In this document: positions 1,237 through 32,182 of the stretch, piece after piece
Numbering within the stretch: the stretch's first letter is position 1
How the letters are laid out: every line of letters begins with the position of its first letter
IMG/VR virus record: IMGVR_UViG_3300042392_001542
Coordinates: 1 to 32,518 of that record
DNA: 32,518 bases
Origin: a virus
Lineage: Duplodnaviria; Caudoviricetes
Reading direction: 5' to 3' (one strand)
The notes under the pieces: generated by a model
Told to the model about the DNA's origin: nothing
Databases searched by the model: none
The model's input: the letters and a program-made list of their open reading frames with translations, nothing else
Program-made: the position numbers and the translations under genes

Positions 1237-1848
1237 ATGAATATTTTTTACATACACACCGATCCAGTTATCGCCGCACAAGCAATGACTGACAAGCACG
1301 TAGTTAAAATGATTTTAGAGTCCGCACAATTATTATCAACAGCACACCGTGCATTAGATGGTAAAGAGTTTATTCAATTATCAAAGTCTGGTGCTCGTCT
1401 TAAAAAGTGGAATCATCCAGATCCATATATGGACGCTACTTTATACAAATCTACACACTTAAATCACCCTTCTGGTATTTGGGTGCGGCAGTCGGTAGAT
1501 AACTATATGTGGTTATATCAACATTTTATAGCTTTATCAGAAGAATACTATCAACGTTATGGCAAACGCCACGCTAGTGAATTATTGCTATCAGGATTAC
1601 TTTCAAATCCTCCTAAAAATATTCCGCACATCGGACCAACACCTATGTTAGTTGCAATCACAGATACTCAATGGCACGTACCAAATAATCCATTACAATC
1701 CTACCGCAACTATTATGTTGGAGAAAAATTAAAAACACCCAAAGATACAGATAGATACTATAAAGTATTGGGTTTAAAGGAGGCGCAATATGAAAGTAAA
1801 GTTAGCAACATACCACAAGTACGTGAATTACTGGAACAATTATACTGA
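1237..1848 (+). CDS. pyrimidine dimer DNA glycosylase / T4 endonuclease V-like (Pyr_excise family) protein
   Basis: N-terminus MNIFY...DKHVVKMILESAQLLSTAH plus the YKSTHLNHPSGIW motif typical of this family; ATG 1237 chosen because of the GAGG RBS. Confidence 0.7.
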   Translation: MNIFYIHTDPVIAAQAMTDKHVVKMILESAQLLSTAHRALDGKEFIQLSKSGARLKKWNHPDPYMDATLYKSTHLNHPSGIWVRQSVDNYMWLYQHFIALSEEYYQRYGKRHASELLLSGLLSNPPKNIPHIGPTPMLVAITDTQWHVPNNPLQSYRNYYVGEKLKTPKDTDRYYKVLGLKEAQYESKVSNIPQVRELLEQLY

Positions 1849-2038
1849 TGAAATAAATTTAAGTATGATTAACGCTATCCAAAAAGCCGCAACTTGGGCT
1901 TGGGTAGGTATTTCCAAAGCAACAAAGTTATACGCCTTATATATGATAGACGGCGAAAAAATTTACACAGATTATGCGGGCTTTAGAAAATTGCTAAAGA
2001 CAGGAAGAGAAGCCGGAGTTGATTTAAATGTCCTATAA
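1790..2038 (+). CDS. hypothetical protein (82 aa)
   Basis: AAGGAGG RBS; overlaps the end of the upstream gene. Confidence 0.75.
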   Translation: MKVKLATYHKYVNYWNNYTDEINLSMINAIQKAATWAWVGISKATKLYALYMIDGEKIYTDYAGFRKLLKTGREAGVDLNVL

Positions 2039-2480
2039 TTTAGATGTTGATAAAGTATTTGCCTACACAATAGCATCTGTTAAAGACATAGGTGATGTTA
2101 TTAAAGAATTGATGATACAAGAAAATTACCACCTAGCTCTTGATTTCTTACAAGAAGAAAAGAGTGCGCTTAAAGAAGCTCTTGGTATATTAGCAAAAAT
2201 TAAAGATGATAAATATCAAACAACATTTAATGATATGATACCAAAAAAATTAAAAGATATTGAGTTTGCAATTAAGTACTGTAATAGTCAGCTTATTGAT
2301 GGAAAATATAAATTACTAAATCAAGATGAAGAATACAAATACAATAGAAAGAAAAAAGAACTTAAGATTAAAAACTTAAAAAAATTAAAAGTTATAGCTA
2401 TGAATACAAATCAATGGGACTTCTCAGATTATATTGACGCGCAAATAAAAAAGGAAGAAGTTAAGCTTTATCAGGCTTAA
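2028..2480 (+). CDS. hypothetical protein (150 aa)
   Basis: GGAG RBS, translational overlap with the previous ORF. Confidence 0.75.
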   Translation: MSYNLDVDKVFAYTIASVKDIGDVIKELMIQENYHLALDFLQEEKSALKEALGILAKIKDDKYQTTFNDMIPKKLKDIEFAIKYCNSQLIDGKYKLLNQDEEYKYNRKKKELKIKNLKKLKVIAMNTNQWDFSDYIDAQIKKEEVKLYQA

Positions 2481-2489
2481 GGGTGTTTT

Positions 2490-2720
2490 ATGAGATTAAC
2501 TGTTGATACTTATTATTGGAATGAATACGATGAGCAATGGTATTATGGTGGAGAGCTGGAACTAGCTACCAGAGAAATAAGATATATAGATTTTGATATG
2601 GAAGGAAAATCCAGATTTGGAAGATTGGTTGAATTAAATTTAAACTCACTTAGAGATTATAAAGTTTATTATATAAAAAGAGAAGATGGAGTTTATTTAC
2701 ATAATAATTTTTTAGTTTAA
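2490..2720 (+). CDS. hypothetical protein (76 aa)
   Basis: ORF filling the space up to the tmRNA gene. Confidence 0.7.
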   Translation: MRLTVDTYYWNEYDEQWYYGGELELATREIRYIDFDMEGKSRFGRLVELNLNSLRDYKVYYIKREDGVYLHNNFLV

Positions 2721-2721
2721 T

Positions 2722-3084
2722 GGGGTCGTAATGGTCTCGACGGGTAGTGATTAGTAGAAATGCATGCGGCGTGGTGCCTTAAAGCCAAAACAAGATAACT
2801 GACAACAGTTACATTCCTGCATATACGCCTTCAATGGCATATGCATTAGCTTAATTTAGAAGGAGCTATCTGGGCGAGTCCTCTCTGGTGGGACAAACCC
2901 TGAAAAGAAAGCCAGATATGAGAGTGCGGCTGAACTAGTCACGCTTAAAGAATAATAAGTTTGCTCATACTTTAATTTTGACTTTTTATTCAAAGTATGA
3001 TAAGATAATATAAGAAGCTAAGCATGTAGATGTTTTTATGGGATAGCTATTCGGACAGGGGTTCAATTCCCCTCGACTCCACCA
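2722..3084 (+). ncRNA. ssrA: transfer-messenger RNA (one-piece)
   Basis: 5' GGGGTCG pairs with 3' CGACTCC-ACCA including the G3:U alanine identity pair; T-arm AGGGG-TTCAATT-CCCCT; ATAACT|GAC resume context; tag reading frame 2801-2854 = (A)DNSYIPAYTPSMAYALA*. Confidence 0.95.
2978..3006 (+). promoter_or_regulatory. putative sigma-A promoter inside the tmRNA gene
   Basis: TTGACT(2978-2983)-17 bp-TAAGAT(3001-3006) with TG at 2998-2999, same architecture as the other promoters. Confidence 0.5.
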
Positions 3085-3125
3085 TATTAAATTAGTGCGG
3101 ATAAAACCGCGGAGGAAAAGTAAAG

Positions 3126-6089: not shown

Positions 6090-6548
6090 ATGCGCATAAT
6101 TGATTTTAAGAATTTGAAGATGACAACAGAAACAGAGTATACAAAAGTTATATTTAATTTTGAACTAGCAGATAAATTAGATATGAGTATATTTGATTTT
6201 ACAAAATTAATTAATGAAGATATGCGGGCAAAAATAGTTGCAGCAAACTTATCTGATTATAAAGACCATAACGTTGTATTTGAATTTAAAACAGATTTAA
6301 AAAATATGGATTTAGATCCTATGATTCCGCCACTCTTAACAGCATTTGTTTTAAATCTAAAGCTAGATAAAACAGTGTTTAAACATGGTGAAAAAATACT
6401 TGCAGTGCCTAGACAGTTAAGTATTGATAAAGGGTTTTTAATGGATGCAAATGCTTTAGATTTAGTTAACTATAATTTACCTGTTGAAAAGTTTAATATA
6501 GTTTTCTTTAATGTAAAAGATAAAGCAATTCTAAGCATTATTGCCTAA
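6090..6548 (+). CDS. hypothetical protein
   Basis: ATG at 6090 follows a GAGGTG RBS (the ORF track starts at GTG 6078). Confidence 0.75.
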   Translation: MRIIDFKNLKMTTETEYTKVIFNFELADKLDMSIFDFTKLINEDMRAKIVAANLSDYKDHNVVFEFKTDLKNMDLDPMIPPLLTAFVLNLKLDKTVFKHGEKILAVPRQLSIDKGFLMDANALDLVNYNLPVEKFNIVFFNVKDKAILSIIA

Positions 6549-7053
6549 TATGAATTCTATTGAAATATACACAGACGGCGCTTGCAGTCAAGGAGCTTTT
6601 ATGCCTTGGCCCGGAGGATATGCTGTAGTAGCAATTCTCTCTGACAGGGAACCAATCTTTATTGACGGCAATAAAATGCATACGACAAATAACGAAATGG
6701 AATTGACGGCTTTTTTAAAAGCTTTAGAGTTAGTAGATTTTCAATCTTTTATGAAAGAGTATGAATTCGTTAACATATATACAGACAGTTCTTATATACA
6801 TAATTGCTTTGAGCAAAAATGGTATGAGAAATGGATAGCTAATAACTGGATAGCCTCAACTAAAGAGCCAGTAAAAAATAAAGAGCTATGGGTTAAAATA
6901 CTAGACCTATATAAAAAAGTTAAAGTCCAAACTAAATTAACTATATTAAAAGTATCAGCTCATAAAGATAATGAGTATAATAATCTTGCCGACGAACTGG
7001 CAGTGAAAGCAAAAGAGAGGGTTGAAAATGAAAACTATAGTAGTATTAGATAA
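6541..7053 (+). CDS. rnhA: ribonuclease HI
   Basis: IYTDGAC, TNNEMEL, TDSSY, VKNKELW, SAH...NNLADELA motifs; start is TTG 6541 or ATG 6550. Confidence 0.93.
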   Translation: MPNMNSIEIYTDGACSQGAFMPWPGGYAVVAILSDREPIFIDGNKMHTTNNEMELTAFLKALELVDFQSFMKEYEFVNIYTDSSYIHNCFEQKWYEKWIANNWIASTKEPVKNKELWVKILDLYKKVKVQTKLTILKVSAHKDNEYNNLADELAVKAKERVENENYSSIR

Positions 7054-7474
7054 CATTTTTTCAGCCGATATGGTTAAGGATTTTGACTTCTTAAAAAAGA
7101 ACTTAGACATGAAAAAATATAACGTCATCTCTCCACTTATGTTTATGCTAAAAGATGGCAAATACAACTTAGAAAACTTTACAGTAAGACTTATCGCGAG
7201 TTCAATTTCATTAGGCAATATGTATAATGAGTTTGGAACCATTAAGTCAATTACAGACCAAAACAAAACAACTATTTACTTTGGAATGTCACACACTAAT
7301 GTTAAGGCAAATGAAATTTATGTGATAAATAAAATAGCACTAGATGCGCAAGAAGCTTTATTAGATAGTTATTTAAAAGAATCTAAAGTAACGTTTAATT
7401 ATATTAAATCAAATCAAGCTAAAAAAGATTTTACAGATGTAAAACAGCTTGTGGAGTTCCTGAATGCTTTATAA
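7028..7474 (+). CDS. hypothetical protein
   Basis: ATG at 7028 after GAGG; overlaps both neighbours. Confidence 0.7.
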   Translation: MKTIVVLDNIFSADMVKDFDFLKKNLDMKKYNVISPLMFMLKDGKYNLENFTVRLIASSISLGNMYNEFGTIKSITDQNKTTIYFGMSHTNVKANEIYVINKIALDAQEALLDSYLKESKVTFNYIKSNQAKKDFTDVKQLVEFLNAL

Positions 7475-8726
7475 TGAAAAACAATTACAAGCTATTAATT
7501 CAGTTGAGCCGCAAGTCGTAGTTATCGCTTCGCCAGGATCTGGTAAGACTCACACAATGATTGCGGCGATTAAGAAGCATTTAGAACAAGAAAATCCAAA
7601 GACAGTAGTAGCAATTACTTTTACTAAAAAAGCAACAGAAGATATACAAAGTAAGATATTTGTTTCTAACGAGCTCTTATCTGTTGCTACTATTCACAGC
7701 TGGAGCTTGTCTGAGTTAAATAAATTATCTTTTAAATATAAGTTTAGAGTTAAAATTTTAGCAGAAGATAAGATTAGAGTAATTCTTAAACCTTTTATTG
7801 AAGAATATAAAGTTCACGAAAAGCTTGAAGACTCCTGCTATATGTATATGATGGGAACAATCAATCCAGACCTTCACCAAAATGTGCGGGCAAAATTCGA
7901 TGCTATATATAAAAAATATACAGATTATAAAAGAGCAAGATATTTATACGACTTTACCGACTTGCCACTTTACTTAAAAGATTTACTGATGGAGTATGAC
8001 GAGCATATAACAGTCGGTGCCTTATTTGTAGATGAGTTTCAAGACGTAGACCCAACTCAATTAGAAGTTTTCGATAGAGTTGTTGCAGATAAAAAATTCT
8101 TTATTGGAGACCCTGATCAAGCCATTTATATTTTTAGAGGAGCTAATAAAGAAATATTCAGCAAGTTAGAAGATTTTAAGAGTTATAAGTTAGATATTAA
8201 TTATAGAAGCTATCAACCAATATTAGATTTTGCTTCAAGTTTTAAAAATCAAGTGCAGGATAAATGGTGGATTAATAAAACTACTTATTATTATGCCAAC
8301 GAGATGAAAGCTATTAGAGGAAGTGGGAAGGGTGAATGCCAAATCTTTATAGACCGCAGAGGTCGTTTCTTTGATGCGATAACGGGTGGACCAACAATTG
8401 ACCCAGCTGAAGTATTTAAAGACCAGCTAGAAAACAATCCTTATCAAATTCTTTGCCGCACAAATATTGAAGCAAAGACTTTACAAAAACTTGGTCTGAA
8501 AAATGCCACAACAATTCACCAAGCTAAAGGCATTGAATTTAAAAATGTTTTATTAGTAGATTTTGAACTTCAAAATGAAGAAGATAAAAACGTTGCTTAT
8601 GTAGGTTTAACAAGAGCTAAAGATAAATTAATAGTTTGTCACTATGAAACTTTATTAAACAACATAAAGCATTGCGATAAGAAAAAAATTGAATTTATAA
8701 ATAACGAATTTAGGCTAGCCTTTTAA
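7464..8726 (+). CDS. short UvrD/Rep-family SF1 helicase
   Basis: Q motif (NEKQ), Walker A SPGSGKT, ITFTKKA, DEFQD, GDPDQAIYIFRGA, NYRS, TIHQAKGIEF, YVGLTRAK. Confidence 0.9.
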   Translation: MLYNEKQLQAINSVEPQVVVIASPGSGKTHTMIAAIKKHLEQENPKTVVAITFTKKATEDIQSKIFVSNELLSVATIHSWSLSELNKLSFKYKFRVKILAEDKIRVILKPFIEEYKVHEKLEDSCYMYMMGTINPDLHQNVRAKFDAIYKKYTDYKRARYLYDFTDLPLYLKDLLMEYDEHITVGALFVDEFQDVDPTQLEVFDRVVADKKFFIGDPDQAIYIFRGANKEIFSKLEDFKSYKLDINYRSYQPILDFASSFKNQVQDKWWINKTTYYYANEMKAIRGSGKGECQIFIDRRGRFFDAITGGPTIDPAEVFKDQLENNPYQILCRTNIEAKTLQKLGLKNATTIHQAKGIEFKNVLLVDFELQNEEDKNVAYVGLTRAKDKLIVCHYETLLNNIKHCDKKKIEFINNEFRLAF

Positions 8727-8755
8727 TTGCAAAACAACATAGACTATGATATAAT
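8727..8755 (+). promoter_or_regulatory. sigma-A promoter with extended -10
   Basis: TTGCAA(8727-8732)-17 bp-TATAAT(8750-8755), TG at 8747-8748. Confidence 0.8.
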
Positions 8756-8775
8756 TATTTATATGGAGGAAAAAT

Positions 8776-9753
8776 ATGTTAGATTATAAAAAATTCTTTG
8801 ATATGGAGCCTGGGAAATACTGGAAGCTTCCAGAAAATAAAAAGGCTGAAATTGATAAGTATATGAAAGATCCAAACTATTTGCCTATGATTAAACATGA
8901 CGGAGTATGGGCTAGAGTAATTATTACCGAAACTGGTGTGGTTATTCAAAGTCGCGGTATTAGCGTCGTTACTAATACATACGGTGAGTACCAACTAAAA
9001 GTCCCACACATAACTAATGAAATTAAAAGTCTTTATCCTGTTGGAACAGTTTTACTTGGAGAAATTTGCTACCCATCTTTTAAAAAAGATGCAAACCACG
9101 TAGGTTCTGTTTTAAGATGTTTAGATGATAAGGCAGTCGCGCTACAAGAAAAAGATGAAGATAAATTACACATTTACTTTTTTGATTGCCTAGCCTATGA
9201 TGGACAAGAGGTTTATCAAAACCCCTTCTGGAATAGAATCGGCGGCGATTGGATTAAAAAAGCAACTTATACCCATAAGGCATTTATTGGTTCTGACGCA
9301 AAAGTTTTATTAGAAAGCGTTTGGGACGATGGCGGAGAAGGTATTATTTTGATTAACAAAAACGAACCTTATAATATTGGCCGTGCGAAAGCTTGGCATA
9401 GTATTAAAGTAAAGCGAGAACTTGGAGAAATTGAATCACCAGTTGTCGCTTTTGTAGAACCAAATAAAGATTACACAGGAGACGACCCTCATTGGACATA
9501 TAGAGACTCGAATGGAAATGTAGTTACACAGGCATACGCCAAAGGATGGAAAGCAGGAGTTACAGTAAATTATGAAGGCAGAGTAGTGAACATCACAAGT
9601 GGACTCACTGATGAAGATGCTGAGTATTTAAGTACACCTGAAGCTGCAGAAATAATGAAAGCGGGCAAGTTAATCGCGGTATTTACCGGCATGAGCTTAA
9701 CCCCAGACAGCATACGACATCCTCGATTAATTAGACTTCGTGATGAAGCCTAA
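8776..9753 (+). CDS. ATP-dependent DNA ligase (phage type)
   Basis: Motif I KHDG, III LLGEI, IIIa FFDCL, IV EGIIL, V IKVK, VI RHPRLIRLRD. Confidence 0.88.
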   Translation: MLDYKKFFDMEPGKYWKLPENKKAEIDKYMKDPNYLPMIKHDGVWARVIITETGVVIQSRGISVVTNTYGEYQLKVPHITNEIKSLYPVGTVLLGEICYPSFKKDANHVGSVLRCLDDKAVALQEKDEDKLHIYFFDCLAYDGQEVYQNPFWNRIGGDWIKKATYTHKAFIGSDAKVLLESVWDDGGEGIILINKNEPYNIGRAKAWHSIKVKRELGEIESPVVAFVEPNKDYTGDDPHWTYRDSNGNVVTQAYAKGWKAGVTVNYEGRVVNITSGLTDEDAEYLSTPEAAEIMKAGKLIAVFTGMSLTPDSIRHPRLIRLRDEA

Positions 9754-12922: not shown

Positions 12923-12923
12923 T

Positions 12924-13020
12924 TAATATTAAACACAGGTTTCTTGGAAAAGGAGGAGCTGGTTTAAAAATACAAAAACGCCCACTATTTCATCTTGGCG
13001 TTTTATGGAGGAATTCTATG
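12924..13020 (+). repeat. cassette leader element copy 1 (two hairpins + RBS + ATG)
   Basis: First 46 nt match copy 2 at 45/46; second hairpin AAAACGCC/GGCGTTTT; ATGGAGGAATT before the start codon. Confidence 0.92.
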
Positions 13021-14307: not shown

Positions 14308-14309
14308 AA

Positions 14310-14404
14310 TAATATTAAACACAGCTTTCTTGGAAAAGGAGGAGCTGGTTTAAAATATAGAAATGTCCACAATTCATCATAGACATTTCATGGAGGAATT
14401 GATG
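14310..14404 (+). repeat. cassette leader element copy 2 (two hairpins + RBS + ATG)
   Basis: Direct repeat of 12924-13020; second hairpin GAAATGTC/GACATTTC. Confidence 0.92.
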
Positions 14405-15499: not shown

Positions 15500-15519
15500 A
15501 AACACAAGGAGGTCATCAC

Positions 15520-16284: not shown

Positions 16285-16285
16285 T

Positions 16286-19875: not shown

Positions 19876-19884
19876 TCCAAACAC

Positions 19885-19915
19885 AAAAGGAGTCGTTAAT
19901 AAAGCGGCTCCTTTT
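19885..19915 (+). terminator. intrinsic terminator
   Basis: AAAAGGAGTCGT-N7-GCGGCTCCTTTT. Confidence 0.8.
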
Positions 19916-19939
19916 ACTAATTAACAGGAGAGTGAACAA

Positions 19940-20914
19940 ATGGATTTGACTAAATTAAAACCACATATTATTTCGGAAAGTCTTCATGATAAAATCTTTT
20001 TATTTTATGGTGAAGCAGGTACACGCAAAACAACAGTAGCCGCAGGATTCGAAGGTAGCTTATTAGCAGCTTTTGAAATCGGTTATAAGTTTATTGACGG
20101 TGTTCAAGCCCAGCCAATTCAAAGCTGGTCAGACTTCAAACAATTTTTAAGAGAATTAAAAAGAGATGAAGTTCGTTCTATTTATAAAACAATTATAGTC
20201 GATACAGTTACCTTAGCTTACAGCGCATGTATGGAATATGTCTTAGGACAATACGGCGTTACTGATGCTGGTGATCTTGGATTCGGTAAAGGTTGGAGAG
20301 CGATTCGTAAAGAATTTGAAAAATCAATACTATCTATTCCTCAAATGGGCTACGGGTTAGTCCTAATTGCACACGCAGACGAAATTGAAGAAAAGAACAA
20401 CATTAAATCAAAAGTAGATATCGATAAGCGTCCAGCCGCAATCATTAAAGGTTTAGCGGACTTTATTTTCTATGTTCGTAAAGAATATAAAGATAATACA
20501 GATGGCGCTTTAACTACTGAAAACCAAACAGTTTTTGCTTATAACCAATTAGTAGAAATTGAAACTAAAACACGTTCTCGTTATTTCTCAACAAGGTTTG
20601 AATTTACTTATGATAACCTTAAAGCAGAAATGAAGAAAGCAATTGAAGAACAAAAGAAAGTTGAAGGCATTGTAACTGTTCAAGAAAAAGAATACAGTTT
20701 ACATGAACTTCAAGAAGAAGATTTTGAACAATTAAGACTTGATGTAGTTAATCTTGCTAAAGAGCTTTTAGAAACAGATGCATTTCAAATTGTTGAACAA
20801 AAAATAATTACAATTATGGGTGCGGAAATTAAACTTAGCCAAGCAAGTAAAGTATACGAACCACAACTTAAAATACTTCAACAAGAACTTTTAGACATTA
20901 AAGTAAACCTTTAA
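19940..20914 (+). CDS. AAA_24 / Sak4-like P-loop ATPase (YorG-like)
   Basis: FYGEAGTRKTT, LLAAFEIGY, TIIVDTV Walker B, GFGKGW, LVLIAH. Confidence 0.78.
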   Translation: MDLTKLKPHIISESLHDKIFLFYGEAGTRKTTVAAGFEGSLLAAFEIGYKFIDGVQAQPIQSWSDFKQFLRELKRDEVRSIYKTIIVDTVTLAYSACMEYVLGQYGVTDAGDLGFGKGWRAIRKEFEKSILSIPQMGYGLVLIAHADEIEEKNNIKSKVDIDKRPAAIIKGLADFIFYVRKEYKDNTDGALTTENQTVFAYNQLVEIETKTRSRYFSTRFEFTYDNLKAEMKKAIEEQKKVEGIVTVQEKEYSLHELQEEDFEQLRLDVVNLAKELLETDAFQIVEQKIITIMGAEIKLSQASKVYEPQLKILQQELLDIKVNL

Positions 20915-21298: not shown

Positions 21299-22885
21299 GT
21301 GGTCGTGTCAAAAGCACTATTCGACAGAAATGCGGCCATGATGATTATCGCTGGGTTAATTAAAAATCCGGAGCTAGTCCATGACCAAGAAAATTTCAAA
21401 CTCACAACTAACGATTTTGATAATGAATTTTACAAAATAGTTTTTGGTGCAATCGCTAATATTGCGGCTGAAGGTTCACAAAACATTTCACCGCAAGATA
21501 TTGACCTTTACATTGGTCAATTTAATAAACAATATGAAGTATTTAAATCTGCTGGTGGATATGAATATCTTAGAGGGCTTCAACCCTTTATTGATAGTAT
21601 GGACTCTAGTAAGTTTAATTTTTACTATGAAAGATTAAAAAAGTTTACCGTTTTAAGAGACTTGCAAAAAGCAGGTATTGAAACCAAAGAATTCTATAAT
21701 CCAGAAGTAGACTTTATGCACCTTGACAAAGAAAGCGAAAAGCTTAACAACATTACAGTTGATGACATTGTCAAGACTATTTTAAAGAAAGTTAATAAGG
21801 TAGAAGATAGTTTCGTATCACGAGCTATTACTACAACTCAAAAGGCCGCATTAGGCATTCTTGAATTATATCAAGAATTAAAAGAAAGACCAGAAGTTGG
21901 TAAACCACTTGAAGGCGATATTTTCAATTACATTGTGCGCGGAGCTCGCTTCGGTAAAATGTATATAAATAGCGCTCCATCAGGTCACGGTAAAACTCGC
22001 TTCATGGTTGGCAATGCTTGTGCGATTTCACTACCAAGAATTGAAGGGGATAAAGTTGTCATTAGAGATGACTTAGCTCCTGTTTTGTTTGTAACTACAG
22101 AGCAACAAGCTGATGAAATACAAACACTAATTCTTGCTTATGTTAGTGGTGTTAATGAAAGAAAAATATTATATGGAAATGCTAATTTTGAAGAAGAGCA
22201 AAGGATATTACAAGCTATACAGTTAATTAAAAAATATGAAAATAACTTTATTATTGAAGTAATACCAGACCCTTCTATTGCATTAATTAGAGCTAAAATA
22301 ATTAAGCACATATTTCAAAATCATGTGCAGTTTATATTTTATGATTATATCTTTACCAGTCCTAGTTTACTTGTTGAATATCAACAAAGCAAGATTCGTG
22401 AAGACGTTGCACTTATGATGTTGTCAAATACATTAAAAGAAATTGCGGCACAATACGATGTCTTCGTTCAGTCAGCAACTCAGTTAAATGAGCGCTGGGA
22501 GCAAACTATGATTAGAAATGTTAACCATATTCGCGGTAGTAAGGCTATTGCTGATAAGGCTGACGTAGGTATGATTACAGTAAAACTTGAAGAAGTTCCT
22601 GAAGAAAAAGAAATCGTAGAACAATTATGTAAACACGCTGGTATTGAAATACCGAATGTGGTTACTGATATTTATAAAAATCGTCGTGGTGAACTAACTA
22701 GCGTAAAGCTATTTAGATACTTCGATTACGGTACTTGTAGAACACGAGACTTGTTCTTAACCGGTCTCAATCACAATATACTTAAAAACTATGATAAGAT
22801 TGAATACGATACAAAAGAATTTGACCTATTAGACATTATGACTCAACCTAAGAAAGATGGTGATGACGATGGCGAAATCAATTAG
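21299..22885 (+). CDS. dnaB: DnaB-like replicative helicase
   Basis: Walker A APSGHGKT, VTTEQ, FYDYI, SATQLN, IRGSKAIADKAD, KNRRG; GTG start after GAGGTG. Confidence 0.9.
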   Translation: MVVSKALFDRNAAMMIIAGLIKNPELVHDQENFKLTTNDFDNEFYKIVFGAIANIAAEGSQNISPQDIDLYIGQFNKQYEVFKSAGGYEYLRGLQPFIDSMDSSKFNFYYERLKKFTVLRDLQKAGIETKEFYNPEVDFMHLDKESEKLNNITVDDIVKTILKKVNKVEDSFVSRAITTTQKAALGILELYQELKERPEVGKPLEGDIFNYIVRGARFGKMYINSAPSGHGKTRFMVGNACAISLPRIEGDKVVIRDDLAPVLFVTTEQQADEIQTLILAYVSGVNERKILYGNANFEEEQRILQAIQLIKKYENNFIIEVIPDPSIALIRAKIIKHIFQNHVQFIFYDYIFTSPSLLVEYQQSKIREDVALMMLSNTLKEIAAQYDVFVQSATQLNERWEQTMIRNVNHIRGSKAIADKADVGMITVKLEEVPEEKEIVEQLCKHAGIEIPNVVTDIYKNRRGELTSVKLFRYFDYGTCRTRDLFLTGLNHNILKNYDKIEYDTKEFDLLDIMTQPKKDGDDDGEIN

Positions 22886-23939
22886 AGATTATCGCGAGAT
22901 GCTCTCGCCAGAAGACATTAAAAGAATTCTAAAAGACCATGGGGTTGAATCTGCTAGAGAAAATAATACTATGATTGTCTACTCAACGGTATGCCATAAT
23001 TCAACTCACGACCACGGAAGTGAGAAGTTATATTATTACAAAAAAAATAACATGTTTAAATGTTATACAGAGTGCAACGCAGTGTTTGATATCTTTGAAT
23101 TAATTATTAAAATGCGACGAATTGCAGGAGAAGAAATTTCTTTGCGTAAAGCAATACAATTATGTGGTATAGACAATAACGAAAGCATAGATGAAAATGA
23201 ATACTATGGAGTGCGGGAACAATTAGATTATTTATACGAAATAAACAATCACCCGGAAGATGATCCAACTATTTTAAAAGTATTATCTAAAGATATTATG
23301 AATAGATATGTGTTTGATTTAAACTATCTTACACCCTGGATTTCTGAATCAATTACTCCAGAAACTTTAGTTAAGTATGGTATAAAGTTTGATACAATAT
23401 CAAATGCCATTGTTATACCTTACTATACAGATAATAAAGAACTTGTCGGTGTGCGTGGTAGGTTTTTAAGCCCAGACGCAAAAGCAAAATATATGCCAGT
23501 GAAATATAACGGTGAGTATTTAGCTCATCCAACAAGTAAAATACTTTACGGTCTTGATGTTAATAAAAACGCAATACAACGATTACAAACAATAATACTA
23601 TTTGAAGGTGAGAAAAGCGTTATGAAGATGGATAGTCTTTATGGCGACAATAATATCTCAGTGGCTGTTTCAGGCCGCAACTTAAGCAAAGAACATGTGG
23701 CGCTACTTATGAAATATGGAGTGCAAAATATTATCCTTGGTTTTGATAGAGATTATAAATCACATAAAGAAATAGAGAAAGAATTAAATGAGTATATGGA
23801 AATCTTCAAGTACGCTAAGAACTTCTTCAACATAAGTATTATAATTGATTATGACTTTGTGCTAGAGCATAAAAATGCTCCGATAGATCAAGGTAAAGAA
23901 CTGTTCGAACAGCTAATGCTAAAAAGAATATACTTATAA
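22869..23939 (+). CDS. dnaG: DNA primase (zinc-binding domain + TOPRIM)
   Basis: VCHN...CYTEC zinc domain, VGVRGR, LYGL, LFEGEKS, GFDRD. Confidence 0.85.
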   Translation: MAKSIRDYREMLSPEDIKRILKDHGVESARENNTMIVYSTVCHNSTHDHGSEKLYYYKKNNMFKCYTECNAVFDIFELIIKMRRIAGEEISLRKAIQLCGIDNNESIDENEYYGVREQLDYLYEINNHPEDDPTILKVLSKDIMNRYVFDLNYLTPWISESITPETLVKYGIKFDTISNAIVIPYYTDNKELVGVRGRFLSPDAKAKYMPVKYNGEYLAHPTSKILYGLDVNKNAIQRLQTIILFEGEKSVMKMDSLYGDNNISVAVSGRNLSKEHVALLMKYGVQNIILGFDRDYKSHKEIEKELNEYMEIFKYAKNFFNISIIIDYDFVLEHKNAPIDQGKELFEQLMLKRIYL

Positions 23940-23947: not shown

Positions 23948-25735
23948 ATGAATAAATTTAATTATAAATTAAAAGAGACACCCTTAAACCTCGATAGTAG
24001 CAATATTATCGAGGACTACTTAAGGTCTCTTGGAATTGAAAAGATCGAAAGCTTCTTGTCGGAACCGTCAATCTATGATGAAGAAAGCTATGAAAATCTT
24101 GAACGAGTACACGAATTAGTAGATACCTTGCATGAAGGTTTCACAACTAATCAAAAGTTTTTTATGCAGATTGACAGCGATGTAGACGGTTTTACATCTG
24201 CCTCAATATTTTATAGATACTTTAAAGACCTTTATCCTGCGGCACAAATTAAGTGCCGAGTGCATAATGGAAAAGAACACGGAATTGTAATGAATTCTGT
24301 GCCGCAAGATGCAAAATATATTATCATACCAGATGCCGGCTCAAATCAAATTGATGAGCAAAAAGAGCTTGTTCGTAAAGGTAAAAAGGTTTTAGTCATT
24401 GACCATCACTTAGTTGATACTTACGAAGAAGTTCCAGGCGCAATAGTTGTAAACAATCAACTTTCGCCAAAGTTTAAAAATAAGTTTCTTAGTGGTGCGG
24501 GTATGGTTTATAAAGTCATACAATGTTATAGCAAGAAATACGGTGATAATAAACATCATCAAGAATATATTGATTTAGCAGCGCTAGGGCTCATTTCTGA
24601 CATGATGGATACACGGGACCTAGACAATAACTTTCTCATCGCTACGGGCTTAAAAACCATTAAAAACGCCATGTTTAAAGCTTTACTAGTAAAACAATCT
24701 TATAGTGTTAGCTCAGTTGATCTTCCTAATAAAATTGACGTTGCTTTTTATATCACGCCCCTCATTAATGCGGTTATCCGTGTAGGCACTACAGAACAAA
24801 ATGAACAATTGTTTCAAGGTTTCACAGAATACAATCACGATGAAACTTATGAAAAACAATACAAGGGAAATGTAAGTTCAGAAACCTTCTATGAAATGAT
24901 TGCGAGAATGGCTTATAATATTCGTAATCAACAAAACAAAGAAAAAGAAAAATCAATGGACTTTATTCGAGGCATTATTGAACAAGATAAATTAGACCAA
25001 AACACAGTTGTTACGGTTATTAGTTCTCAAAATGATGATGTTACCGTTCCAAAAACAATGACTGGCTTAGTTGCAATGGACATTGTAAAGAATTATAAAA
25101 AACCCGCAATGTTATTAAGACCAAGAAATATTGATGGAGAAAATTACTTCTATGGCTCAGCTCGCGCTAATGTGCGACCAGGGTTCAAATCATTCAGAGA
25201 AGTACTTCAACAAAGTGGTTTAATTCATTTCGCAGAAGGTCATGATATGGCCTTTGGGGTTGGAGTTCATGAAGACGATTTAGAAAAATTAACAGCGTAC
25301 TTAAACGATAAATTAAAAGATATTGATTTTGGTACAGAAGAAATTGAAGTAGACGCAATTTTGCGCGGCAGAAGAATATCTCACGACATTCTTACAGACT
25401 TCGCCAAATATAACTACTTATATGGAATGGGAATACCACAACCAAAGTTTGCTTTTGAAATCTTTATTACAAGAGATATGATTAATCTTATTGGTAAAGA
25501 ACGCAATACAATGAAGTTTAATTATAACAATATTGAGTTTATTAAATTCAATGCTAAAGAAATTATACCAGAATTGTTTGCGGAAACAGAAGATGCCTTT
25601 GTGGATGTTAATCCAAAACTGCGTGTAAAGATTATTGGCAGAGCACAATATAATGAGTTCAATGGAACAAAAACACTTCAGATTATTATGGACAATTTCA
25701 ACTTTGAAAAGTCCGCTGAATCTGATTTAATTTAG
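23948..25735 (+). CDS. recJ: RecJ-like ssDNA exonuclease (DHH/DHHA1)
   Basis: DSDVDG, PDAG, IDHH, LSGAG, ISDMM, PLINA..R, GSAR, GHDMAFG. Confidence 0.9.
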   Translation: MNKFNYKLKETPLNLDSSNIIEDYLRSLGIEKIESFLSEPSIYDEESYENLERVHELVDTLHEGFTTNQKFFMQIDSDVDGFTSASIFYRYFKDLYPAAQIKCRVHNGKEHGIVMNSVPQDAKYIIIPDAGSNQIDEQKELVRKGKKVLVIDHHLVDTYEEVPGAIVVNNQLSPKFKNKFLSGAGMVYKVIQCYSKKYGDNKHHQEYIDLAALGLISDMMDTRDLDNNFLIATGLKTIKNAMFKALLVKQSYSVSSVDLPNKIDVAFYITPLINAVIRVGTTEQNEQLFQGFTEYNHDETYEKQYKGNVSSETFYEMIARMAYNIRNQQNKEKEKSMDFIRGIIEQDKLDQNTVVTVISSQNDDVTVPKTMTGLVAMDIVKNYKKPAMLLRPRNIDGENYFYGSARANVRPGFKSFREVLQQSGLIHFAEGHDMAFGVGVHEDDLEKLTAYLNDKLKDIDFGTEEIEVDAILRGRRISHDILTDFAKYNYLYGMGIPQPKFAFEIFITRDMINLIGKERNTMKFNYNNIEFIKFNAKEIIPELFAETEDAFVDVNPKLRVKIIGRAQYNEFNGTKTLQIIMDNFNFEKSAESDLI

Positions 25736-26303: not shown

Positions 26304-29300
26304 ATGTCAGAAAACAAATACTCAAGTTTGCACGCACATTCCGACTATTCAAATCTCAAAGTTATTGATAGTATCAATAAAGTTGGCGATTTAATAGACG
26401 GTGCTTTCAACAAGGGCTTACATGCCATTGCGTTAACTGACCATGATACATTATCTGGTCACGTAAAAGCAGTTCAACATTTTAAGTCTAAGTATTTAGA
26501 CAAACCTTTTAAGCTTATCTTGGGAAACGAAATCTATCTTACAAGAGAAGGTTTAAATTCTGAGAACTATGAAAAAGGCGAAAAGTTTTATCATGTTCTT
26601 TTGCTTGCAAAAGATGCAGAAGGACATGAACAACTTCGCAAACTTTCATCGCGTGCTTGGTCACGCTCTTTTATTCGTGGTGTAATGAGAACGCCAACGT
26701 ATGGAAGCGATTTAAAAGAAGTCATTGGTTCAAACCCGGGACATCTTATCACAACAACAGCCTGCTTAGGTGGTGTAACCGGCAGTCTGTTTATTTCCTA
26801 TGGTGCGGCAGCTTTGGACGATATTGCTGCTCACTTAGAAAAGATGGGTCAACTCTTCGGTAAAGATAATTTCTTTATCGAAGTGCAGCCATCTATGGAC
26901 GAACAACAAATAGCTTATAATAAGTTCATGGTTGATAACTTCTGGGGTAAATACCCTTTTGTTTTTACCACGGACGCGCATTACTTAAACGAAGAAGATA
27001 AAGATTTACATGCTCAGTTTCTTAGCTCAGCATCTAATGGCGATAGAGACGCGGAAAACTTTTATGCGTCTGCTTTTGTCATGTCCGTACAACAAATCTT
27101 TGAACGTCTTAATTATTTTTCAGAAGATAAGCTTGAAGAGATGCGGCTAAATACTATTCGTATTGCTGACTCTGTTCAAACCTATGACTTAAAAAGTCCT
27201 CAAGTTGTTCCTACAGTTCCAGTTTTAATCACTAAAGACATAGAAAATAAACTAAGTGAATTAAGACTGCAAATCCCCACTAAATATAAATACATTCATA
27301 ATTATCTAAATGCTACAGAAACTCAAGACTTATTTTTTATATATAAAATATTTGAAGGCTTCGTCGCAAAGATAAATGTTTTCAATGAAGAATACCTACA
27401 ACGCTTTAACGATGAGTTAGAACAGGTTTGGGAAACTTCTATTACAATCAAACAACCATTATCTAAATACTTTGTTACGATGGCTAAAATGATTGACATC
27501 ATATGGGATGAAGGAGACTCTCTTTTAGGGGTTTCCCGTGGCTCTGCTGCCGGTTTCTTACTTAACTACTGTTTAGGTATTACCCAACTAGATCCGCTTC
27601 GCCAAGAGCTTATAATGCCCTATTGGCGCTTCATTCATAAAGATCGCCCAGAACTTCCTGATATTGATATTGATACTGAAGGCAGCAAACGAACACGAGT
27701 TTTTAATAAAGTAAAAGAATACTTTAACTCAATAGGTGGTGACGTTATTAACGTTTGCACCTTCGGTACTGAAAAATCTAAGTCAGCTATCCGTACTGCG
27801 GGTCGCGCACTTAACGTTGATGATGATGTTATATCATTTATCGTTTCAATGATTCCAAACGAAAGAGGCTTTGACTGGACTCTTGACCAATGTATGTATG
27901 GAGATGAAGACCATAAAGCAATTGCTAAGTTTCAAGAAGAAATGGGTAGAGAAAAATCCTTATGGAAACTCGCCTATAGTATTGAAGGACTTATTACTCG
28001 TTTAGGTGTTCACGCTTCTGGCGTTATCGCATTTAATGAAGACTTTACAAAACACAACTCGTTAATGAAAACTAGTCGTGGTGTTTTAGTATCTGCTTAT
28101 AATTTAGAAGATACTGAATACGCTGGTGGTTTAAAGTACGACTTTTTAACCATTAACGCATTAGATAAACTTCGCACAACAATGAACCTTCTTTTAGAAG
28201 ATGGTAAAATTCAATGGCAAGGAAATCTTAAAACTACTTACGACAAATATTTACTACCAAAAGAATTAGAATATAAAGATCCCAATATGTGGGCTATGGC
28301 TGGTCGCGGTGAAATTGTTGATTTATTTCAGTTCGACACAAGCGTTGGTTCACAAGCAATGCGGTCAATTAAGCCGCAATCTATTTCGCAACTTGCTATC
28401 GCAAACTCTTTAATGAGGCTTATGGCGCAGGATGAAAACGCTGAGTTACCACTTAATACTTATGTTAAGTTTAAAAACTCAGAAGTTATGTGGTATAGAG
28501 AATTAGAAAATAGCGGCATCAATAGTGATGAAGTTAAGATACTTGAAAAATATCTTAAACCATTATCTGGAGTTGCAGACTCTCAAGAATCAATCATGAT
28601 GATTGTTATGGACCCAAAGATTACAAACTTTTCTGTTGTTGAAGCTAACGGTCTTCGTAAAGCTATCGCTAAAAAGAAGTTTGATACCATCGATAAAATT
28701 AAAAAGATGTTCTATGAAAAAGGAAAAGAAATAGGCACAAGAAAGAAACTTCTAGATTATGTCTGGAGTGTTCAAGTTATGCGGCAAGCTGGTTACTCAT
28801 TTAGTGTTTTACACACGATGGGTTATTCGACTATCGCTTTACAAGAAATGAATATGGCCTACAAATTCCCCGTCATTTATTGGAATACTGCTTGCTTGTC
28901 TGTAAACGCAGGTGCGGTTAATGAAGAAGATTACGAAGACCTTATAGAAGAAGGTATCGTAGAAATTGAAGAAGACGATGAAAATAAACGTGAAGCAAAT
29001 AAAGTTCAATATGGTAAGGTCGCCGCAGCAATCGGTAAATTTAAAACTGAACTCGGCATGAAGATTGAGTTGCCAGATGTTAATCGCGCAAAGTTTGGAT
29101 TTACTCCAGACTCAGAAGCGAACGTTGTTTGGTTTGGTTTAAAAGGTATTTCCAGAATTGGTGATGACTTAATTAGAGAAATCATTAATAATCGTCCGTA
29201 TACTTCTGTTGATAACTTTATTGAGAAGTTAAATAAAACAGGAGCGAGAACTTTAGTAAGCAAAGATAGAATTATATCTTTAATCAAATCTGGCGCGTTT

Positions 29301-30224
29301 GATAAAATTGAAATGCGGCCTCGTGAAGAGATTATGGAAAGCTTTATTTTAAAAACTTATGACAAGAAAAATCGTATTACTTTACAAAATATAATGTCGC
29401 TTGTAAAATATGAGATGCTTCCTATTGAACTTGATTTAGAAAAAAGAGTATTTAACTTTACTAAGCATATTCGCAAGAGCAAACTTAAAGAGTATTATGT
29501 TCTTGATGAGTCTGCACAAGAATTCTATTTTGAAAACAACTTTGGTTTAGATATTGAAAACATCAAGCGCGGAGTTGAAATAGTTATGGCAATCGACGCT
29601 ATTAAGTGGGAAAAGATTTATGATAAGTATATGGAAAATGTTCGTAAGTTTATTGTAGAAAACCACGATAGATTGCTTGAAGAATATAATAAGAAAGCAT
29701 TTGAAGAAGAATGGAACAAGTATGCCGCAGGTAATGTTTTGCAATGGGAGCTAGAAGCTTTAAACTTCTATCATAGCGGTCATGAATTAAATGGCGTGGC
29801 TAAAACAATGCATCATGAAATTACTCCTATACAAAATATAAAAGAAGATGATGTAATCGGAACATTTAATATTGACGGCAAGTCTTTTCCTAAATATAAA
29901 ATTAGACATATTATAGGAACCGTATTAGATAAAGATAAGCTTAAGCACACTGTAACGCTTTCAACTCCTGAAGGTATTATTATGATTAAGGTTTATCGTT
30001 CCCAGTTTTCAAAGTATGACCAAGTTCTATCAACTGTGGCTGATGACGGCACTAAGAATTTAATTCAAGATAGCTTCTTTAAAAAAGGAGTTCATTTAAT
30101 GGTCACCGGAATTAAGCGTGGAGATATGTTTATTCCAAAGGTCTATAAAGAAGTTGGAACGGCACCTATTTTACAAATTGAAATCGAAGGTGGGAAGTTT
30201 AAAAACTTCTATGAAAAACTATGA
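26304..30224 (+). CDS. dnaE: DNA polymerase III alpha subunit (family C, YorL-like)
   Basis: PHP domain HAHSDYS, TDH, TDAHY; SRGSAAG, PDIDID catalytic motif, HASG, KYDFL, GYSFS..H, HhH GLKGISRIG. Confidence 0.95.
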   Translation: MSENKYSSLHAHSDYSNLKVIDSINKVGDLIDGAFNKGLHAIALTDHDTLSGHVKAVQHFKSKYLDKPFKLILGNEIYLTREGLNSENYEKGEKFYHVLLLAKDAEGHEQLRKLSSRAWSRSFIRGVMRTPTYGSDLKEVIGSNPGHLITTTACLGGVTGSLFISYGAAALDDIAAHLEKMGQLFGKDNFFIEVQPSMDEQQIAYNKFMVDNFWGKYPFVFTTDAHYLNEEDKDLHAQFLSSASNGDRDAENFYASAFVMSVQQIFERLNYFSEDKLEEMRLNTIRIADSVQTYDLKSPQVVPTVPVLITKDIENKLSELRLQIPTKYKYIHNYLNATETQDLFFIYKIFEGFVAKINVFNEEYLQRFNDELEQVWETSITIKQPLSKYFVTMAKMIDIIWDEGDSLLGVSRGSAAGFLLNYCLGITQLDPLRQELIMPYWRFIHKDRPELPDIDIDTEGSKRTRVFNKVKEYFNSIGGDVINVCTFGTEKSKSAIRTAGRALNVDDDVISFIVSMIPNERGFDWTLDQCMYGDEDHKAIAKFQEEMGREKSLWKLAYSIEGLITRLGVHASGVIAFNEDFTKHNSLMKTSRGVLVSAYNLEDTEYAGGLKYDFLTINALDKLRTTMNLLLEDGKIQWQGNLKTTYDKYLLPKELEYKDPNMWAMAGRGEIVDLFQFDTSVGSQAMRSIKPQSISQLAIANSLMRLMAQDENAELPLNTYVKFKNSEVMWYRELENSGINSDEVKILEKYLKPLSGVADSQESIMMIVMDPKITNFSVVEANGLRKAIAKKKFDTIDKIKKMFYEKGKEIGTRKKLLDYVWSVQVMRQAGYSFSVLHTMGYSTIALQEMNMAYKFPVIYWNTACLSVNAGAVNEEDYEDLIEEGIVEIEEDDENKREANKVQYGKVAAAIGKFKTELGMKIELPDVNRAKFGFTPDSEANVVWFGLKGISRIGDDLIREIINNRPYTSVDNFIEKLNKTGARTLVSKDRIISLIKSGAFDKIEMRPREEIMESFILKTYDKKNRITLQNIMSLVKYEMLPIELDLEKRVFNFTKHIRKSKLKEYYVLDESAQEFYFENNFGLDIENIKRGVEIVMAIDAIKWEKIYDKYMENVRKFIVENHDRLLEEYNKKAFEEEWNKYAAGNVLQWELEALNFYHSGHELNGVAKTMHHEITPIQNIKEDDVIGTFNIDGKSFPKYKIRHIIGTVLDKDKLKHTVTLSTPEGIIMIKVYRSQFSKYDQVLSTVADDGTKNLIQDSFFKKGVHLMVTGIKRGDMFIPKVYKEVGTAPILQIEIEGGKFKNFYEKL

Positions 30225-31423
30225 GAATAACAATTTGGGATATGGACTGGTTTAATAAACAAAGCTTTATACCTAATCACAAAGCACAAAAGATATCTTC
30301 CTTTCATAAACAAAAGGGAGATATCATTAACTTTGTTGAAGAAAGCGAACATTTGACTTTTGAGTATGATTTGTTGTATATTATAAGAGAGAAGAAAGCA
30401 ACGCCTTTTCCAGCTAGAAAATATATTGATAAACAAAATATCAAATTAGTTGGAGCAGATTTTGACTTTTATGATAATCACTGGGATCTAACTTCTGAAA
30501 TGAAGATGGTGCGGCCCGATTATTCTTTATATGAAGTACCTGAAAATAACGCATATGCTAATGCACATATTATTCAAATGCTCGATGGCACTAAGTTTCT
30601 TCCAGTTTGGCAAGACGCTACAAATGCCGCAGTATCAGGAAAACAAAAAACCTATATTGTAGATGAAAACATTTGGGACTTAAGTATTGAAGACTTAACA
30701 AAATACTTTGATTTAATTAAAGACTATAAAGATATTGCATTTGCTCATCCTATTAGTTTAAAAAGAATTACAACAGATAGGTTTTGGTCTAAATTTAAAA
30801 ACCTACACTTCCAAGGTGGAACAATATTTAAATTCAAAAATGACTTTGGTTCAGAATATTCTGAAGTTAAACAAATCGTAGATAAATTTAAAGAGTTTAA
30901 AGAATTGCATCCGCATATAGAAGTTCAAGGATTTCCAATCAAAGCAGTTATCTATGACCATTGGAAAGATAAAACTAACGGTATTAAAGATTTAAAGAGA
31001 TTGTTAAAGATTACTGACTACGCAAAAAGAAATAAAATACACGTAATCATTAAAACTCCAAAAGATAGAATGATTACTCCTTACTGGTTTTTCTTTGATA
31101 TGATGGAGAACTGGACTACAGAGTCACCATATATTTCTTACATAGAAATGATGTTGCTATCACTAACAAACAGAACTAAAACTAATTGGCAAGAAATATT
31201 AAACAATCCTATAAAATGGTCTGTTCCTCGCGTAGACTTTCTATTACATGTTATTACTAAATACCCAGAAATTCTATCCTATACAACAAGAAAATGGGGA
31301 GACAACAGTATTGACATAACCCATATCAACTTCAAGAAAGTGGTTGAGTTTACATACAACTTCGAGAAAGAGGATACATTAATCAAAATAGGGGAAGCAA
31401 TAAAACGAGGTGAAGAGTTATGA
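30221..31423 (+). CDS. radical-SAM-like protein lacking cysteines (degenerate)
   Basis: N-terminus resembles the phage radical SAM pattern D.D...PN...KIS..HK..GD and PDYSLY; no Cys in 400 aa; ATGA overlaps on both sides. Confidence 0.5.
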   Translation: MRITIWDMDWFNKQSFIPNHKAQKISSFHKQKGDIINFVEESEHLTFEYDLLYIIREKKATPFPARKYIDKQNIKLVGADFDFYDNHWDLTSEMKMVRPDYSLYEVPENNAYANAHIIQMLDGTKFLPVWQDATNAAVSGKQKTYIVDENIWDLSIEDLTKYFDLIKDYKDIAFAHPISLKRITTDRFWSKFKNLHFQGGTIFKFKNDFGSEYSEVKQIVDKFKEFKELHPHIEVQGFPIKAVIYDHWKDKTNGIKDLKRLLKITDYAKRNKIHVIIKTPKDRMITPYWFFFDMMENWTTESPYISYIEMMLLSLTNRTKTNWQEILNNPIKWSVPRVDFLLHVITKYPEILSYTTRKWGDNSIDITHINFKKVVEFTYNFEKEDTLIKIGEAIKRGEEL

Positions 31424-31992
31424 GGCTACTTTTTGTAGATATAGAAACAACAGGTTTTGATAGAAGATGGGACTCAATAATTGAAGTTGCGGCTATCTTA
31501 TACAATACTGACTTGAAAAAACAAATTATAACTTTTCATGAGTATATAAAACCATATAAAAAAATTCCAGAAGAAATAGAAAAGATTACCGGCATTACTA
31601 ATGCGCAAGTAGAGAGCTGTAGAGGCGAGTTTGAAGTTCTTAAGGACTTTATACAATTCGTTAAAGAATATGTCCCTGACGCAATTGTAGGGCATAATTA
31701 TGACGCTTTTGACGGTGAGTTCTTTAAAGCAAAAGCTTCATTTCATTTTCTAAACTGGCCTTTAATAAAAAGCATTGATACGCTAAAAGTTGCGCGCCAA
31801 GTTAAGGCACCGACAACAATGCTAACTGCAAGCGGAGCTCCTTCTTACAAACAACAATCTATTGCGGCTGGATATGGTTTAACATATCAAGCCCACTCAG
31901 CCATAGAAGATGTTAAAGCATTAATAGAAATATATAACAGAATGACTGGTACTCAACAACGTTCTGTAAAACGAAACCTATTAGGTTTCTAG
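31420..31992 (+). CDS. DnaQ/epsilon-like DEDDh 3'-5' exonuclease
   Basis: VDIETTG, ITGIT, GHNYDAFD, IDTL, HSAIEDV. Confidence 0.9.
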   Translation: MRLLFVDIETTGFDRRWDSIIEVAAILYNTDLKKQIITFHEYIKPYKKIPEEIEKITGITNAQVESCRGEFEVLKDFIQFVKEYVPDAIVGHNYDAFDGEFFKAKASFHFLNWPLIKSIDTLKVARQVKAPTTMLTASGAPSYKQQSIAAGYGLTYQAHSAIEDVKALIEIYNRMTGTQQRSVKRNLLGF

Positions 31993-32002
31993 AGGTGATA
32001 TT

Positions 32003-32182
32003 ATGAAATTAGACTTGAGTAAATTTACTAATCAGCAACTTGAAGATATGCTGGAAGAAAGAAAACGGGAAATAGGTATTTTAACTTTGAACCCAAAGCT
32101 TGCGGAAATATTAGAGGAAATTGAGGCAATAGAAATGTTCCTTCAAAAAGAACCTCAGGAGTCCGCTAATGGCAAAGCTTAG
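32003..32182 (+). CDS. small helical hypothetical protein (59 aa), not in the ORF track
   Basis: GAGGTG RBS, ATG 32003, MKLDLSKFTNQQLEDMLEE...GKA, TAG 32180-32182. Confidence 0.72.
   Translation: MKLDLSKFTNQQLEDMLEERKREIGILTLNPKLAEILEEIEAIEMFLQKEPQESANGKA

Follow-up and report, generated by a model that had tools for sequence, protein, structure and literature searches.

A selected DNA word, TGCGG(C), dispersed over the genomes of one tailed-phage lineage, and a phage primase as its candidate reader

The DNA analysed here is IMG/VR virus record IMGVR_UViG_3300042392_001542 (positions 1 to 32,518), a 32,518-nucleotide stretch of a tailed phage (Duplodnaviria; Caudoviricetes), hereafter called the window. 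It is densely sprinkled with the pentamer TGCGG (CCGCA on the opposite strand), in most cases extended to TGCGGC. Our analyses establish TGCGG(C) as a real, selected, genome-wide DNA word confined to one phage lineage. As its reader we favour the phage's own DnaG-type primase, of which the word would be the recognition site, an interpretation to which we attach an even chance. No description of the word was found in the largely open-access literature searched on phage TGCGG, primase sites, Chi in phages and yorJ. The element under study is the following:

1274..32105, both strands: dispersed array of 83 TGCGG words, 46 on the plus strand and 37 on the minus strand, 49 of them reading TGCGGC

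An earlier reading of the window made from its letters alone (the sequence-only reading) had counted about 46 TGCGG and 35 CCGCA on the plus strand. The exact numbers are 46 and 37, against 11 and 4 for the control pair AGCGG/CCGCT, and no other 5-mer ranks higher in the window than TGCGG/CCGCA. For these 83 copies, base composition (zero-order) predicts 18.3 and an order-2 Markov model 28.6 (z-score 10.2). The same reading had named a codon-preserving shuffle as the way to refute the enrichment, which it put at about 5-fold. We shuffled codons within each gene (300 shuffles) and found 43 TGCGG against 14.1 expected (maximum of the 300 shuffles, 23) and 37 CCGCA against 10.0 (maximum, 20). The enrichment thus persists above all shuffles, but its size after codon correction is ~3.3-fold rather than ~5-fold. 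For the hexamers, the same procedure gives a ~6-fold excess (TGCGGC, 23 against 3.7; GCCGCA, 24 against 4.0), and AGCGG is depleted in the phage (~0.5×; 10 against 15.4 expected in the codon shuffle).

The choice of Arg codons carries the same imprint. Fourteen of the 17 CGG codons stand after a codon ending in TG (xTG); Arg is encoded by CGG in 14 of 36 cases after such a codon as compared with 3 of 336 elsewhere (P = 2.5e-13), and the nine xTG-CGG positions cited in the sequence-only reading are all as described there. Its proposal of a selected, dispersed cis-signal kept at synonymous sites on both strands is supported. A codon or amino-acid artefact is ruled out by the codon shuffle, by the occurrence of sites in all frames and by the CGG-after-xTG bias.

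Protein genes contain 79 of the sites, which occupy every reading frame; two more are in the transfer-messenger RNA (tmRNA) gene and two between genes. Coding and template strands are both enriched for the word. The oriented logo of the 83 sites has a strict T as first base, with no information 5' of it; C follows in 49/83, and logos contain no flank information past this +1 position. Extended counts were made on the window plus an 11.6-kb upstream stretch from a 98% identical record (D, any base but C; B, any base but A; V, any base but T). Observed over expected numbers are 60/9 for TGCGGC, 41/22 for TGCGG+D and 37/22 for TGCGC+B; without the T there is no excess (V+GCGGC, 14/17; V+GCGG+D, 36/46). 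A T7-like trio of words, TGC followed by GG, GC or CG, was considered and rejected. Most of the TGCCG excess comes from copies that overlap GCGGCA on the opposite strand (TGCCG+D is at 26/22 in the phage, and at 1.1-1.4× in outgroups too), so that only the GG and, weakly, the GC endings stand. No convincing second word was found at a fixed distance from the sites.

On a given strand, the mean gap is 680 or 823 bp between TGCGG words and ~1270 bp between TGCGGC words. In the window, TGCGGC words are spaced more evenly than expected by chance on each strand (coefficients of variation (CV) 0.62, P = 0.008, and 0.59, P = 0.004), though not when strands are pooled (CV 0.88, P = 0.23). The density of the word is uniform along six of seven sequences tested, with no end-clustering of the kind seen in P1. 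A weak regional strand asymmetry (combined P = 0.004) points to no consistent origin.

The word follows one branch of the phage phylogeny. In a primase tree of 61 rows (quick IQ-TREE search), TGCGG is at least 1.4× observed over expected in 38 of the 39 rows of one clade (Shimodaira-Hasegawa-like approximate likelihood ratio test (SH-aLRT) support, 99) and at 0.5-1.3× in 10/10 rows of the sister clade; three distant rows reach 1.6-3.8×. With stop-codon reassignment allowed for, TGCGGC stands at 2.6-6.5× in 12/12 in-clade sequence sets vs 0.5-1.2× in three outgroup sets. T is the best or tied base before GCGG in 10/12 in-clade sets, and C the best or tied base after it in 12/12; the first base is relaxed in G071, G077 and G080. 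The tail-gene region of a ~85% identical relative is also word-rich (48 vs 16 in 21.7 kb). The Enterocloster phage CB457P2 was not counted as motif-bearing, as its GCGGC excess stems largely from a near-total loss of GCWGC (W, A or T; GCAGC, 0 vs 32; GCTGC, 2 vs 34).

Comparisons with three relatives of ~85% nucleotide identity revealed turnover at constant density: 12/28, 24/37 and 16/29 of the window sites are kept (52/94 overall), and the same genes hold 29, 35 and 25 sites in these relatives. At fourfold-degenerate positions, G is conserved in 73/115 cases inside sites and 219/553 outside, and C in 47/69 and 406/929 cases, in three comparisons that are not mutually independent.

The window corresponds to the replication module of a tailed phage. 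The replisome is of the SPbeta type, and complete relatives of the phage measure 103-130 kb. Its genes code for DnaE, DnaB, primase, RecJ, a Sak4-like protein, RNase H, ligase, a UvrD-like helicase and NrdAB, alongside tmRNA and a phn operon. Those relevant to replication, with the candidate reader first, are:

22857..23939, plus strand: DnaG-type primase of the SPbeta YorJ family, candidate reader of the word (PHROG 47, motifs)
21299..22885, plus strand: DnaB-like replicative helicase
23948..25735, plus strand: RecJ-like single-stranded DNA (ssDNA) exonuclease
26304..30224, plus strand: DnaE-type DNA polymerase III alpha subunit
18979..20914, plus strand: PHROG 2367 gene, from gene order likely a single-stranded DNA-binding protein, and Sak4-like ssDNA annealing protein
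6541..9753, plus strand: RNase H, a gene without assignment, 420-residue UvrD-like helicase and ATP-dependent ligase
30221..31423, plus strand: cysteine-free, radical-SAM-like protein of 400 residues, found in the motif-bearing clade only

The primase has a zinc-binding region with C46/H47...C69/C73, in which Met66 lies three residues before C69, and TOPRIM residues E250 and D297/D299. It is 33-36% identical to the primases of the SPbeta family and SEP9, and matches a solved DNA primase chain (4e2k_A) weakly.

A recognition site for a phage protein, which was the fallback of the sequence-only reading, is the interpretation that fits best, and the layout of the word resembles that of a primase site: a strict T then G, blank upstream and graded downstream. 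Prokaryotic primases recognize a template triplet whose 3' base is needed but left uncopied, synthesis starting opposite the middle base (PMC2034472, PMC5737085); the primer begins with a purine after this cryptic 3' template base (PMC5737085). For SP6 primase the triplet is 5'-GCA-3' (PMC2034472, PMC5737085). This rule predicts the one-sided logo observed and a pppGCGG(C) primer. The primase would read the opposite strand, with 5'-(G)CCGCA-3' as its template, the 3' A as the uncopied, cryptic base and pppGCGG(C) as the start of the RNA primer. Both strands would be loaded since forks may run both ways genome-wide, in recombination-dependent or multi-origin replication; priming sites would then be required at intervals of ~0.7-1.3 kb on each strand. 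We infer both the primase as reader and the primer sequence; the presence in the phage of genes for a primase, DnaB, DnaE, RNase H and a ligase counts in favour of this interpretation.

The zinc-binding domain gives further indications. In Staphylococcus aureus DnaG, Ile56 and Cys57, near the third zinc ligand, set the cryptic A, and His33 sets the cryptic C in T7 (PMC2978363); in the Clostridioides difficile primase, the lysine just before the third zinc ligand matters (PMC5204125). Judging from its spacing and from the S. aureus numbering, Met66 would be the equivalent of Ile56. Among phage loci in which the zinc-domain beta-4 residue three positions before the third zinc ligand is Met, Ile or Leu (40 loci), TGCGG reaches 2.39× and VGCGG 1.34×. 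With Ser (3 loci) the preference for T is lost (1.87× and 1.99×, respectively), and with Arg or Lys (10 loci) the values are 0.98× and 1.09×. We also applied the test to phages with known primase sites. On the lagging-strand template of T7, GTGTC (1.95×) and TGGTC (1.51×) rank first and second of the 16 NNGTC words; GGGTC comes fifth, and the opposite strand also shows some excess. In SP6 the best word is TTGCA (1.8×), CCGCA itself being at 1.04×, and T4 shows no enrichment.

Several observations weigh against the primase. A primase site would be expected to favour the lagging-strand template and to change strand at the origin. Six complete genomes of the clade show no clean change of this kind (TGCGG, P = 0.012-0.37), and the segment directions in these genomes are inconsistent with the replication genes. 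Given both-strand loading without an origin switch, the primase interpretation needs the added assumption of forks running both ways throughout. Regular spacing is not clade-wide, same-strand pairs closer than 400 bp being at 0.77 in close relatives and 1.13 in far ones. The 3-6× excess of the word exceeds that of the controls (up to 2× in T7, up to 1.8× in SP6 and none in T4). The residue pattern was found post hoc and is confounded with phylogeny; several loci with an aliphatic residue lack the T preference, and L057 (8 kb), the sole in-clade exception in 39 rows, is motif-free with Met at the key position. Eight of nine cultured phages with the same primase family (50 kb each) have no TGCGG excess, including SEP9 and H1, with Met and Leu, respectively, at that position. 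A literature search on SPbeta yorJ yielded no study of YorJ. Lastly, the UvrD-like helicase, the ligase and the 400-residue protein are distributed in the same way as the clade, and motif-bearing genomes also have in common two exonucleases not found in motif-free genomes. As a consequence of this common distribution, the primase is not separable from these proteins by distribution.

The last point leads to another possible reader. The word might be recognized by a different strand-specific protein of the clade, such as the UvrD-like helicase with a nuclease, as a phage-made Chi-like stop or a signal for recombination, for helicase loading or for restart, which we regard as somewhat unlikely. 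The UvrD-like helicase is present in eight of nine in-clade genome sets (the ninth, G077, is covered in part) and was not found in G081, G084, eight cultured stretches or the outgroups G082, G083, G085 and G086. More generally, most motif-bearing genomes have homologues of the helicase and the ligase, and none were found in the motif-free genomes tested; for the distant motif-bearing loci L112 and L114, the available records are too short to show whether the helicase is present. Uniform loading of both strands fits a signal required wherever a break occurs, and a reader of this type would explain the lack of the word in cultured relatives whose primase is of the same family. On the other hand, the helicase shows ordinary UvrD features and no sign of a nuclease domain, and no AddB- or RecC-like scanning subunit was recognized in the window or in 31 flanking genes scanned. 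The 400-residue protein, which is conserved in the clade between DnaE and a 3'-5' exonuclease, has no fold match (model with a predicted local distance difference test (pLDDT) score of 63; no PDB match at E 0.001). Neither the GCA triplet nor the correlation with the zinc domain is explained by a helicase. A narrower version, quite unlikely in our view, is that the clade has its own Chi system, with a phage word that is distinct from the host's likely AGCGG, occupies both strands and is read by the UvrD-like helicase and a nuclease partner. If so, such a system would spare phage DNA ends, or route them into Sak4 recombination, and leave host DNA out.

The sequence-only reading had instead suggested that TGCGG is the AddAB Chi site of the host lineage, present in both orientations so as to curb resection or favour recombination; we consider that TGCGG(C) is unlikely to be such a site. 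Its GCGG core is shared with the Chi sites of Bacillus subtilis (AGCGG) and S. aureus (GAAGCGG) (PMC8022716, bioRxiv 2021.07.08.451572). The host group appears to be the small Bacilli genomes around G001, which are our best proxy rather than the proven host. G001 has homologues of PhnD and of the lipoprotein encoded in the window, and a tRNA-Arg encoded in the upstream stretch shares 91-94% identity with tRNAs in 15 genomes of the G001 group; among the other rows listed, identity does not exceed 89%. A DNA-level host search over 401 genomes returned matches to tmRNA and nrdAB only; for the tRNAs of G080 no match was found in these genomes at E 1e-22, a weak test with two candidates scored per genome.

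In the host-proxy genus (373 kb from six genomes), neither word is enriched (TGCGG, 380/430 or 0.88×; TGCGGC, 77/109), and TGCGG ranks 358 of 512 by raw count. On the majority-coding strand of nine genomes from the order (1.49 Mb in all), the ratio for TGCGG is 0.63-1.32×. Unrelated prophages of the proxy's family favour AGCGG (92/61, 1.5×), not TGCGG (59/58.5, 1.01×), in 21 terminase loci that are partly homologous to one another (70.8 kb; 15 of 201 family genomes). The proposal that TGCGG is the host lineage's Chi therefore finds no support, as the proxy shows neither enrichment nor strand bias and the prophages favour AGCGG. AddA-like open reading frames of ~1000 residues are common in genomes around G001 (many of 61, none above the curated cut-off), and G001 has an addA/addB-like pair. 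Most contacts with Chi are made by AddB domain 1A (PMC4614115), but the 789-residue AddB-like protein of G001 aligns to B. subtilis AddB in the nuclease domain only, leaving the Chi-binding region unaligned. In G038 (same order, 115 kb), GCGG is at ~1.8-2× on both strands and TGCGG is skewed to the leading strand (74/49 vs 15/14 lagging), but the preferred flanks are (A/C)GCGG(A/T), as against AGCGG at 0.5× in the phage; G032 and G037 have a milder GCGG excess. The Bacillus phage SPR shows no excess of the B. subtilis Chi AGCGG (18:15 and 4:8). P1 has 50 Chi sites, which occur on either strand and concentrate at the ends of its genome, and Chi frequency in E. coli is explained by codons (bioRxiv 10.1101/2021.07.08.451572). 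Since P1 selects Chi even so, a negative result in the host is not decisive; moreover, with the host assigned by proxy, the Chi interpretation retains some probability. It is further weakened by the lack of end-clustering of the word and by its tracking of the phage phylogeny.

Very unlikely, finally, is an origin with no selected reader, whether a mutational cold spot, a by-product of restriction avoidance or methylation-linked biased repair of the HIP1 or Vsr type. The fast turnover of sites (52/94 kept over three pairwise comparisons) is in its favour, as is the clade-wide shortfall of GCWGC at Ala-Ala pairs. It is countered by the equally raised conservation at A, C, G and T positions, by single-mismatch neighbours such as TGTGG, which are not markedly depleted, and by the failure to find PF01555, PF00145 or PF02086 methyltransferases in 17 phage records (13 complete; phage records only). 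A clade-wide by-product of GCWGC avoidance was rejected as the word is enriched in frames other than Ala-Ala (15/1, 10/3, 11/3). The uptake signal sequences of Pasteurellaceae are 9-10 bp long, with a GCGG core, conserved flanks and high abundance in the host; a DNA uptake sequence was dismissed here, the flanks being blank past +1 and the host proxy not enriched.

Other features of the window, some of which bear on local claims of the sequence-only reading, are:

2722..3084, plus strand: tmRNA gene with two sites inside
13018..14307, plus strand: lipoprotein gene, 47% G+C, without TGCGG, with a 42% identical homologue in the host proxy G001; variable cassette
14363..17904, plus strand: phnD-C-E-E transporter operon, ten sites against 2.7 expected

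The phn operon is indeed site-rich, ten sites replacing the nine or so first counted. The lipoprotein gene contains no site, as reported, with 3.3 expected at window density (P = 0.04); however, its own codons predict 0.9, and the native ligase gene has none either. The longest gap between sites, noted there as spanning this gene, proved ordinary (12679-14872, 2193 bp with strands pooled; null median 1816, P = 0.8). The nearest named relatives of the phn genes are in Bacilli, Acholeplasmataceae and Izemoplasmatales metagenome-assembled genomes; among viral contigs, PhnD relatives were found in the present phage alone. An imperfect direct repeat of ~105 bp (12921-13025 and 14307-14410, ~80-85% identical) flanks the lipoprotein gene, and between nrdA and a SprT-like gene relatives exchange lipoprotein genes or are without the phn operon, which suggests a repeat-bounded cassette site. 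GATC is strongly avoided (22 vs 77.5 in the window, 6 vs 160 in G068 and 0 vs 206 in G081) and is also absent from the phn and lipoprotein genes. In G066, the upstream stretch L133:10019-14594 brings together genes for a glycosyltransferase, a thymidylate synthase and a serine-hydroxymethyltransferase-like protein (labelled from sequence), a possible base-modification or cell-surface module absent from most of the clade.

Several relatives show features of their own. Coding density jumps with TGA readthrough in G068, G069 (0.60 to 0.82), G071 and G080, the last of which has a tRNA with a TCA anticodon, and with TAG readthrough in G073 (0.68 to 0.88). Stop-codon reassignment is likely in these five genomes; no such jump was found in the flanking stretches of the present phage and a close relative. 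L140 (G068) carries 39 tRNA genes and a tmRNA gene within 20 kb. The GCWGC avoidance of CB457P2 (L231/L238; 2 vs 66 expected) points to a host restriction system, and the Enterococcus phage vipetofem (L230) has 43 copies of the palindrome CCATGG vs 7 expected in 50 kb. The bacterial chromosome of G038 (L292, L293, L299-L302) has an excess of AGCGG(A), CGCGG and GCGGT, which, together with the 1.5× AGCGG of the prophage loci, possibly reflects a B. subtilis-like Chi in this order.

Other words enriched on both strands occur weakly outside the clade: TGAGC(T) in SPR (L227; 50:29, 38:19) and CGGGG in G084 (25:10, 14:4), which could be the priming words of other lineages. Outgroups otherwise yielded weak candidates alone (CGGGG in G084, TAGGG in G081), and GATC avoidance accounts in part for their GACC words. 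Tests of SEP9 and LW81 for GAAGCGG and GCGCGTG had no power (0-1 copies expected).

Should the primase prove to be the reader, a large uncultured phage clade would store its priming map in synonymous codons, and the SPbeta YorJ primase family would gain a specificity, 5'-CCGCA-3' with the primer pppGCGG. This would suggest that the specificity of a primase can be deduced from genome statistics together with one zinc-domain residue, and would call for caution in that GCGG-core words in phages of Bacilli are not necessarily Chi mimicry.

Among known systems, the SP6 primase site shares the template end 5'-GCA-3', but SP6 favours TTGCA rather than CCGCA. The T7 site, 5'-(G/T)2GTC-3', has a similarly sharp 3' template edge with graded next bases and is mildly enriched by the same test; same-strand gaps of the present word are of the order of Okazaki fragments, which measure 1-6 kb in T7 (PMC12839067). 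Unlike in T7 and SP6, where the gp4 protein is a primase-helicase, the present primase is a stand-alone DnaG of the SPbeta YorJ family, and its putative word is effectively a hexamer, in 3-6× excess and on both strands everywhere. With the AddAB Chi of Firmicutes and with P1, the word has in common a GCGG core, an oriented word on both strands and selection at synonymous sites. It differs from Firmicute Chi in having T rather than A before the core, in a specificity extended 3' by C and in the depletion of AGCGG, and from the end-clustered Chi of P1 in its uniform distribution. The closest relatives of the replication module are the SPbeta-type clusters yorI-yorJ-yorK-yorL of SPR, SEP9, phiLM33_01, vipetofem, ATCC 8014-B2 and H1, with the same helicase-primase-RecJ order plus DnaE at 27-40% identity, but without the word in the 50 kb examined per phage. 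To this cluster the present clade adds the UvrD-like helicase, a different ligase and the cysteine-free radical-SAM-like protein.

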